In this document: piece after piece, positions 33,066-33,181 of the stretch | Layout of the letters: the number at the start of each line of letters is the position of its first letter | Numbering within the stretch: the stretch's first letter is position 1 | Assembly: GCF_054482595.1 (NCBI RefSeq) | Contig: NZ_CM137008.1 | DNA length: 64,000 nucleotides | Reading direction: 5' to 3' (one strand) | Position numbers and translations under genes: made by a program | Notes under the pieces: generated by a model | Database searches by the model: none | Seen by the model: only the letters and a program-made list of their open reading frames with translations | What the model was told of the DNA's origin: nothing

Positions 33066-33181
33066 GAACCAGTTCCCACTGCCAGAGGGGAGGGGCGGGT
33101 CAAATCCCTGTGACCTGACGTCTTCTGGACTGCCCGCCCCATCGTTTTTTTATACCCGCGAAAAATGAAATTTAACCAGGA

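Follow-up and report, generated by a model that had tools for sequence, protein, structure and literature searches.

The question raised by this locus is what the stretch at 33066-33181 does: it is intergenic between an HNH endonuclease gene, whose stop codon occupies 33063-33065, and a small terminase gene (terS), in a 64,000-nt stretch of DNA, referred to here as the window. A sequence-only reading had placed a candidate packaging site there, citing a GC-rich dyad, a partial likeness to lambda cosN and the gene order of HK97-like phages. Our analysis indicates that the stretch is very probably the cos site of an SfV-like prophage, at which terminase cuts concatemers into unit-length genomes with cohesive ends. 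The site has already been described for phages SfI and SfV and is part of the well-studied HK97-type packaging system. What the comparison of relatives adds is only mildly new: the deep conservation, at fixed spacing, of a G-rich box (G-box) upstream of the cut and of a GAC-N10-GTC context around it, with HK97 sharing the G-box.

The prophage and its packaging genes

The whole window is Escherichia coli DNA. The 501 bp around cos are 100% identical to E. coli strain 50EVA, and similar sequence occurs in 1159 of the 5426 complete E. coli genomes (approximately one fifth). The element is an e14/SfV-like prophage, a temperate myovirus integrated in E. coli: the PGAP annotation of 50EVA lists ymfK, ymfT, ymfL, ymfR, ymfQ and a contractile tail in the prophage, which identifies the e14/SfV type. 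The packaging module runs in the order HNH endonuclease, P27-family small terminase (TerS), HK97-type large terminase (TerL), portal and S78 prohead protease. Upstream of the HNH gene lie the holin, lysozyme and Rz genes, then a bor/iss lipoprotein gene on the opposite strand. This last gene (31897-32238, minus strand; PF06291; PGAP 'increased serum survival lipoprotein Iss'), located between Rz and the HNH gene, is a virulence-associated moron adjoining cos.

The coordinates of the site and its flanking genes are collected in Table 1. By homology, the HNH gene encodes the accessory nuclease of HK97-type packaging. Its product is 45% identical to HK97 gp74 over 42 aa (E 2e-10), and its best solved relative is the phage HNH protein 5H0M. 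The window TerL is 26% identical to HK97 gp2 over 524 columns (BLASTP E 2e-30); its only PDB sequence match is HK97 TerL, 6Z6D (E 9e-26), and it is 99.1% identical to the TerL of SfIV. The window TerS is 97-100% identical in SfV, SfI, SfIV and 80 IMG/VR prophage contigs. No sequence similarity was detected between it and HK97 TerS, which does not belong to PF05119, and a Foldseek search with the window TerS returned no significant structural match; its predicted fold is the same as that of HK97 TerS. The start of terS is either the ATG at 33191 (PGAP, identical E. coli 50EVA sequence) or a GTG at 33182 (mechanical ORF list). A PF01844 HNH protein, a P27-family TerS and an HK97-type TerL flanking the site support the suggestion of an HK97-type cos upstream of terS.

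Table 1. Features of the packaging locus. Offsets are relative to the predicted top-strand cut after 33140.
Feature	Position	Strand	Remarks
HNH endonuclease gene	32715..33065	+	116 aa; PF01844, E 7.8e-17; PGAP 'HNH endonuclease'
G-rich box	33087..33099	+	GGGGAGGGGCGGG; -54 to -42; last 8 nt are the left dyad arm
TCAAATC motif	33100..33106	+	directly after the G-box; its last base lies 34 nt upstream of the top-strand cut; read from the window sequence
Variable spacer	33107..33126	+	between upstream element and cut region; in close relatives, the segment of the site with the highest variability
GGAC	33127..33130	+	conserved GAC immediately 5' of the overhang, at -13 to -11 (frequencies in relatives in the text); same offset in other phages
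Cohesive-end sequence	33131..33140	+	TGCCCGCCCC; 10 nt, putative 3' overhang; identical to SfI virion cos
Candidate cosB-like TerS site	33145..33175	+	T7 tract, ACCCGCG, A5 tract, TGAAATTTAA, that is T7-ATACCCGCG-A5-TGAAATTTAA; +5 to +35
Ribosome-binding site of terS	33178..33182	+	AGGAG, read from the sequence; 8 nt before the ATG at 33191 (PGAP start)
Small terminase gene, P27 family	33191..33685	+	164 aa; PF05119, E 2.3e-21
Large terminase gene, HK97 type	33682..35415	+	ATPase and nuclease; PF03354 and PF20441

The cohesive end and the predicted position of the cut

Evidence from virion DNA is available for the serotype-converting phages of Shigella flexneri (Sun et al. 2013, PMC3636060; Jakhetia et al. 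2013, PMC3851460). The ends of SfI virion DNA were run-off sequenced and compared with the prophage; 10 nt, 5'-TGCCCGCCCC-3', were missing from the reads and were defined by the authors as cos (PMC3636060). This sequence has one exact match in the 64-kb window, at 33131-33140. A megablast search of phage genomes matched the region at 95-98% identity to the Shigella phages SfV, SfI, SfII and SfIV, along with several phages of E. coli and Salmonella, and the cos of SfIV was reported to be identical to those of SfI, SfII and SfV (PMC3851460). The window shares with the SfI group the cohesive-end sequence, its position between the HNH gene and terS, and TerS and TerL proteins that are 97-100% identical. 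It differs in its host (E. coli versus S. flexneri) and in two flank substitutions relative to SfI. The SfI record ends in ...GCCCGCCCC (longer reading, ...GGACTGCCCGCCCC) and starts with GTCGTTTTTTTATACCCGCG; the window reads ...GGACTGCCCGCCCC ATCGTTTTTTTATACCCGCG at the same junction. Near the cut, the window has A at +1 where SfI has G, and T at -15 where SfI has C. The proposal of a cos site between the two genes is supported by the SfI-identical 10-mer, the gene context and the aligned ends of HK97 and phi644-2.

By this correspondence, the bottom strand would be cut at 33130/33131 and the top strand at 33140/33141. The SfI paper reports a 10-nt 'gap' without stating the polarity of the overhang (PMC3636060). 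A gap in both outward run-off reads points to a 3' overhang, as each template strand stops at its recessed 5' end; with a 5' overhang, the stretch would appear in both reads. This polarity is that of the related phages whose ends have been reported. HK97 has 10-nt 3' overhangs (PMC9410871 Figure 1 legend; PMC11331095); Burkholderia phages phiE125, phi1026b and phi644-2 have 10-base 3' extensions, that of phi644-2 being CGCCCGCTTC (PMC2920897); and Variovorax phage VarioGold has 10-nt 3' ends, CGATCGGTTC (PMC9658991). The VarioGold end is close to the CGACCGGTTC class of overhangs in our survey. By analogy with these phages and from the SfI gap, the overhang here is probably also 3'.

In an ungapped alignment anchored on the cut, the ends of SfI, phi644-2 and HK97 fall in a single column, which corresponds to a cut after 33140 (Table 2). 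Three or four independently determined termini lie in this column. The tetranucleotide preceding the overhang in the window also has equivalents at the same offset: TGAC in HK97, GGGAC in phi644-2 and GGAC in the Klebsiella phage.

Table 2. Ungapped alignment of the window with related phages, anchored on the cut.
Phage	Upstream element	5' of overhang	10-nt overhang	After cut
Window	GGGGAGGGGCGGG TCAAATC	GGAC	TGCCCGCCCC	ATCGTTTTTTTATACCCGCGAAAAATGAAATTTAA
Klebsiella ST101-KPC2phi6.3	GGGGGGGCGGGG TCAAATC	GGAC	CGCCGCCTCA	GTCAATTTTTTATACCCGCGAAAAATGAAATTTAA
Burkholderia phi644-2	GGGGAGGGGGG TGAAAAAG	GGGAC	CGCCCGCTTC (record end)	GTCAAATTTTCACGCCCGCGAAAAATGAAATTTAA (record start)
Moraxella Mcat16	GGGAGGGGCGGG TAAAAAG	GCAC	CGCCCCCTAA	AAAAAATTTTTACGACCGCGAAATTGG
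HK97	GGGCAGGGGGGGGGA TCAAATC	TGAC	CGCCGCCAAA (record end)	GTTTGAATTTAACGCTAACCCGATTTTTTT (record start)

GenBank record starts proved to be unreliable as termini, and only the record ends of SfI, HK97 and phi644-2 agree with the published cut. The SfV record begins 7 nt to the left of the overhang, that of SfII with the base immediately following the HNH stop codon, and that of ST64B approximately 15 nt upstream of the terS ATG, near the ribosome-binding site (window equivalent, 33176). In a scaffold of Salmonella phage As1 (PQ793804, 480-520), the HNH gene stops after ...GGTACGAAGTG and runs straight into CTCGAATTTTTATACCCGCG, which is cos position +1 of the related S.Typ Adana sequence. The join lies exactly at the predicted top-strand cut, as if the assembly had been joined where the physical genome ends.

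The dyad and the alternative readings

The GC-rich dyad of the sequence-only reading is present as a perfect 8-bp inverted repeat, GGGGCGGG (33092-33099) and CCCGCCCC (33133-33140), whose arms are 33 nt apart; the 10-mer and 9-mer quoted as its arms are not fully complementary beyond these 8 bp. The right arm falls within the cohesive-end sequence measured in SfI. When the 125-nt region was dinucleotide-shuffled 2000 times, 6.4% of the shuffles contained a perfect inverted repeat of at least 8 bp, and so did 54 of the 511 same-size tiles of the window. The fold z-scores of the region are unexceptional (-1.4 as RNA, -1.9 as DNA), and a promoter and terminator scan called nothing in the interval. 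Among the 80 prophage contigs encoding a TerS that is 99-100% identical, the left arm varies (GGGGGAGG at 7 loci, GGGCAGG, GGGGCGTG) with no compensating change, the overhang being almost invariant. Across 49 non-redundant lineages, an average of 4.0 of the 8 dyad positions form Watson-Crick pairs, and no covariation was found: swapping arms between lineages gave 4.14 ± 0.10 pairs, with 93% of permutations reaching the observed value. The G-box retains the form GGGGnGGGG across relatives with different overhangs (CGCCCGCTTC, CGACCGGTTC, CGTCCGCTTA and CGCGCCCTCA, among others). The dyad is a by-product of a conserved G-rich box facing a C-rich overhang in the window's lineage and is not a selected hairpin. 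On the shuffles, z-scores, terminator scan, uncompensated variants and arm-swap permutation, we rejected the dyad as a hairpin, cruciform or terminator.

These data bear on three other readings of the stretch. The dyad and the T run that follows it could form a rho-independent terminator ending the HNH/lysis transcript, which we regard as improbable. The minimum free energy fold of the RNA does pair GGGGCGGG with CCCGCCCC, with a U7 run 4 nt later, and the SfIV paper reports predicted terminators in that genome (PMC3851460). However, the stretch was not called by the terminator scan, and the RNA fold z-score is that of an ordinary sequence. Where a terminator has a short GC-rich hairpin (loop of 3-8 nt) directly before the U run, the loop here would span 33 nt, and 4 nt separate the stem from the T run. 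The switch of the left arm to GGGGGAGG in close relatives leaves no sign of a compensated stem. The T tract is also kept where the G-box and overhang cannot pair (mean of 3.5 of 8 pairs outside the window's family). Since the T run is conserved whether or not the arms pair, it is part of the downstream element rather than of a terminator. Finally, the genes immediately downstream, terS and the head genes, are oriented in the same direction. In lambdoid phages, they are expressed from a Q-antiterminated late transcript; a Q gene is present in the prophage (50EVA annotation). Even less probable is that the dyad is itself a recognition feature needed by terminase, either a cruciform or a twofold-symmetric protein site at 33092-33140. 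Its 8 bp of GC pairing are perfect, and a 7- to 8-bp complement between the G-box and overhang regions also occurs in some relatives, such as Moraxella Mcat16 and some Burkholderia phages. Against this, shuffling yields dyads as good by chance, HK97 and Klebsiella phage 020009 lack the pairing, and the left arm changes without compensation in close relatives whose TerS is 99-100% identical. These uncompensated variants and the arm-swap permutation across the 49 lineages have already largely refuted this reading.

The third reading, a lambda-type cos with a cosN giving a 12-nt 5' overhang, had been suggested by a likeness to GGGCGGCGACCT, and we consider it to have almost no chance of being correct. 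It has in its favor only the GC-rich character of the stretch and a shared general layout, in which the small terminase gene lies downstream of the cut. The proposed resemblance itself did not survive inspection: GGGCGGCGACCT has no match with up to 3 mismatches in 33066-33181, and the 39 such matches in the whole window are fewer than in shuffles (mean of 53). The Pfam families of TerL (PF03354/PF20441) and TerS (PF05119) are those of another terminase type, neither lambda gpA nor Nu1 being detected; the only solved relative of the window TerL is that of HK97; and the SfI cos is 10 nt long, with a gap in the run-off reads that fits a 3' overhang. Membership of the lambda-type family is already refuted. 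The reasons first offered for a packaging site, namely the dyad and the lambda likeness, are therefore weaker than the conclusion drawn from them, and both are incidental to the cos assignment.

Architecture of the site and its possible function

The conserved unit of the cos site, as read from the alignments, is a composite of fixed spacing: the G-box with TCAAATC (33087-33106), GAC, the 10-nt overhang, and a T-tract-CCCGCG-A-tract element (33145-33175). An IMG/VR scan with the window TerS returned only 99-100% identical proteins and was used for micro-variation rather than for deep conservation. Among 79 close relatives, the mean minor-allele fraction was highest just after the HNH stop codon (0.25) and next highest in the spacer (0.10). 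It was 0.04 for the G-box, 0.014 for TCAAATC and 0.009 for both GGAC and the near-invariant overhang; downstream it was 0.001, a value that is partly forced because the loci were chosen by TerS identity. In single columns of the spacer, the fraction reached 0.45, and the information content of this segment across lineages is low. No good match by eye to the IHF consensus (WATCAANNNNTTR) was seen in TCAAATC, and an IHF site was rejected.

The deep survey was based on three further IMG/VR scans, with the TerS proteins of phi644-2, Mcat16 and HK97. Loci were anchored on CGCG[AT]AA only, the preceding C being set at +16. Upstream of terS, 80 of the 103 anchored loci had AC at -12/-11 together with a G-rich stretch at -62 to -38, as compared with 15 of 8000 random positions; in most of the loci failing this layout test, the arrangement is the same but displaced by one base. 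In an unfiltered set of 60 non-redundant sequences, anchored only on the downstream CGCG, the G fraction was 0.65 at -58 to -42 versus 0.22-0.36 in the flanks. Around the cut, the frequencies in this set were G 0.88, A 0.85 and C 0.90 at -13 to -11; C 0.95 and G 0.87 at -10/-9; and G 0.73, T 0.60 and C 0.82 at +1 to +3. The base frequencies give a consensus of GAC-N10-GTC, a twofold-symmetric arrangement in which each nick would lie 5' of GTC on its own strand. SfI reads GAC-N10-GTC and the window GAC-N10-ATC.

A cos profile was built with nhmmer from 41 distant relatives, leaving out the window's own family and close Klebsiella phages. In the 64-kb window, the profile had one match, at 33083-33175 (E 2.5e-17), and it gave a single match at each junction of SfI, SfV, phi644-2, Mcat16 and the Klebsiella phage. 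A profile restricted to the upstream half (-60 to -1) matched the window at 33083-33138 (E 1.3e-4) and also the HK97 junction, where the match is in register with the end of that phage (E 8e-6, 5.7-kb search). In 4.8 kb of Vibrio phage VaK, whose TerL is 68% identical to that of the window, the cos profile found nothing, and no such site lies next to the HNH gene; the cos of this lineage must be elsewhere or different. Only 6 nt separate the HNH stop codon from the terS start in VaK (1115-1122).

Beyond the SfI group, the site can be compared with that of HK97. Shared features are the gene order HNH, cos, terS, terL; homologous TerL (E 2e-30) and HNH proteins; a 10-nt overhang preceded by GAC; a G run with TCAAATC ending exactly 34 nt before the top-strand cut, which is the HK97 genome end; a TerS site (in the window, a candidate one) downstream of the cut, in which ACCCG adjoins an A/T tract; and the predicted TerS fold. 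HK97 differs in its overhang (CGCCGCCAAA), in the sequence of the downstream site, in a TerS that has no detectable sequence similarity and is not of PF05119, and in the distance from the HNH gene to cos (approximately 320 nt versus 65 nt in the window). Among HK97-like IMG/VR loci, the G run at approximately -57 to -45 contains 7-11 G in otherwise near-identical relatives, a variation that could stem from slippage in the homopolymer or from errors in sequencing. Burkholderia phages phiE125, phi1026b and phi644-2 have a P27-family TerS, an HNH gene directly upstream, the G-box, GGGAC and a 10-nt overhang in ungapped register, and their downstream CGCCCGCGAAAAATGAAATTTAA is almost identical to that of the window. 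They differ in the overhang (CGCCCGCTTC) and in the motif after the G-box (TGAAAAAG versus TCAAATC), and they are siphoviruses of a different host class.

The segment at 33145-33175 is likely the binding site of the P27-family TerS, as suggested by its conservation, the predicted fold of the protein and the position of the mapped HK97 site. HK97 TerS binds +15 to +29 (CTAACCCGATTTTTT), reading a G and the shape of the adjacent A-tract (PMC11331095, PMC9410871). In the window, ACCCGCG lies between T7 and A5 tracts, and the RNA fold allows these two tracts to pair. In the Burkholderia relatives, the corresponding region reads AAATTTT-CACGCCCGCG-AAAAATGAAATTT, with AAATTT on both sides. The flanking tracts in the window and the AAATTT in Burkholderia make the candidate site partially dyad-symmetric.

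The steps of packaging can be proposed on this basis. TerS would bind the T-tract-CCCGCG-A-tract (+5 to +35), between the cut and its own gene. The nuclease of the HK97-type TerL and the adjacent HNH protein would then nick the strands 10 bp apart, at the two positions given above, leaving TGCCCGCCCC as 10-nt 3' extensions. Both the sequence of cos and its length were established in SfI, and homology covers all components; participation of the HNH protein here would follow the example of HK97, the only phage in which an HNH requirement has been demonstrated (PMC9410871, PMC11331095). Packaging would proceed rightward, with terS and the head genes entering first, until the motor stops and cuts at the next cos. 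The G-box and TCAAATC would then be on the last-packaged side, where they might act like lambda cosQ or position TerL and HNH. In HK97, TerS is a roadblock for the incoming motor and the gp74 HNH protein stimulates cleavage (PMC11331095, PMC9410871). In outline, the proposed site works like lambda cos (cosQ-cosN-cosB), in which a nicking site is accompanied by small-terminase sites toward terS and, on the last-packaged side, by a separate element. Lambda has a 12-nt 5' overhang, terminase of the gpA/Nu1 families and no HNH partner. Its cosN sequence is unrelated to that of the window, which is not a member of this group.

The upstream element was found in the Klebsiella, Burkholderia, Moraxella and metagenomic relatives and in HK97, with (T/A)CAAA(T/A/G) as the consensus of the motif after the G-box. 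We tentatively propose, at somewhat less than even chances, that the G-box and (T/A)CAAA, fixed 41-43 bp upstream of the top-strand cut in phages of Gamma- and Betaproteobacteria with HK97-type TerL and HNH, constitute a previously uncharacterized cos sub-site read by TerL, HNH or portal. Such a sub-site could serve as a cosQ-like termination signal or brake, or position the second nick; together with the GAC-N10-GTC symmetry, the G-box would set each nick 5' of GTC. The G-box occurs with either type of TerS (P27 family or HK97 gp1), whereas the downstream site differs between the two, which suggests that TerL, HNH or portal reads the upstream element. In the HK97 termination structure, approximately 25 bp lie inside TerL (PMC10359639), so that -35 to -55 would be near the portal. 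Staphylococcus aureus phage PVL, with an annotated 9-nt cos (CGGAGCAGA), has a C7 run followed by AAAG that ends approximately 46 nt short of the genome end, with C in place of the G run of the proteobacterial phages. The claim is accordingly restricted to Proteobacteria; given PVL and the missing site in VaK, the element is not universal. We found no description of the G-box element in the literature searched, the older work (Juhala 2000, Allison 2002, Kala 2014) being outside its scope.

Taken as cos, the GC-rich intergenic feature has its annotation settled as a packaging cut site whose ends are predictable to the base. This assignment fixes where genome maps of such phages should begin, where PhageTerm-type analyses should find termini, and which 110 bp would enable such phages to package a plasmid or satellite. 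A gap-free cos architecture of fixed spacing is common to phages of E. coli, Burkholderia and Moraxella, its upstream half extending to HK97, and the HK97 in vitro packaging system gains specific bases to mutate in asking what besides TerS defines cos.

Several further observations concern the remainder of the window. Between the Q antiterminator and holin genes, two antisense genes (28108-30310, minus strand) form a moron-like insertion in the late-gene region. One encodes a 344-aa homolog of the 37-kDa nucleoid-associated protein (PF04245, E 8e-69) and the other a 392-aa protein with no Pfam or PADLOC match; neither protein received a defense assignment from PADLOC or Pfam. According to the annotation of the identical 50EVA genome, two tandem integrase genes lie upstream of the prophage regulatory region (approximately 14800-19900), and at the far end (52000-53400) a DUF262 protein comes after truncated fragments of tail-fibre-assembly and invertase-like recombinase genes. 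Another integrative element may adjoin the prophage. To the right of the prophage, the chromosomal flank contains tRNA-Pro(GGG) at 55714-55790 and an L25 ribosomal-protein leader at 59506-59531, both on the minus strand.
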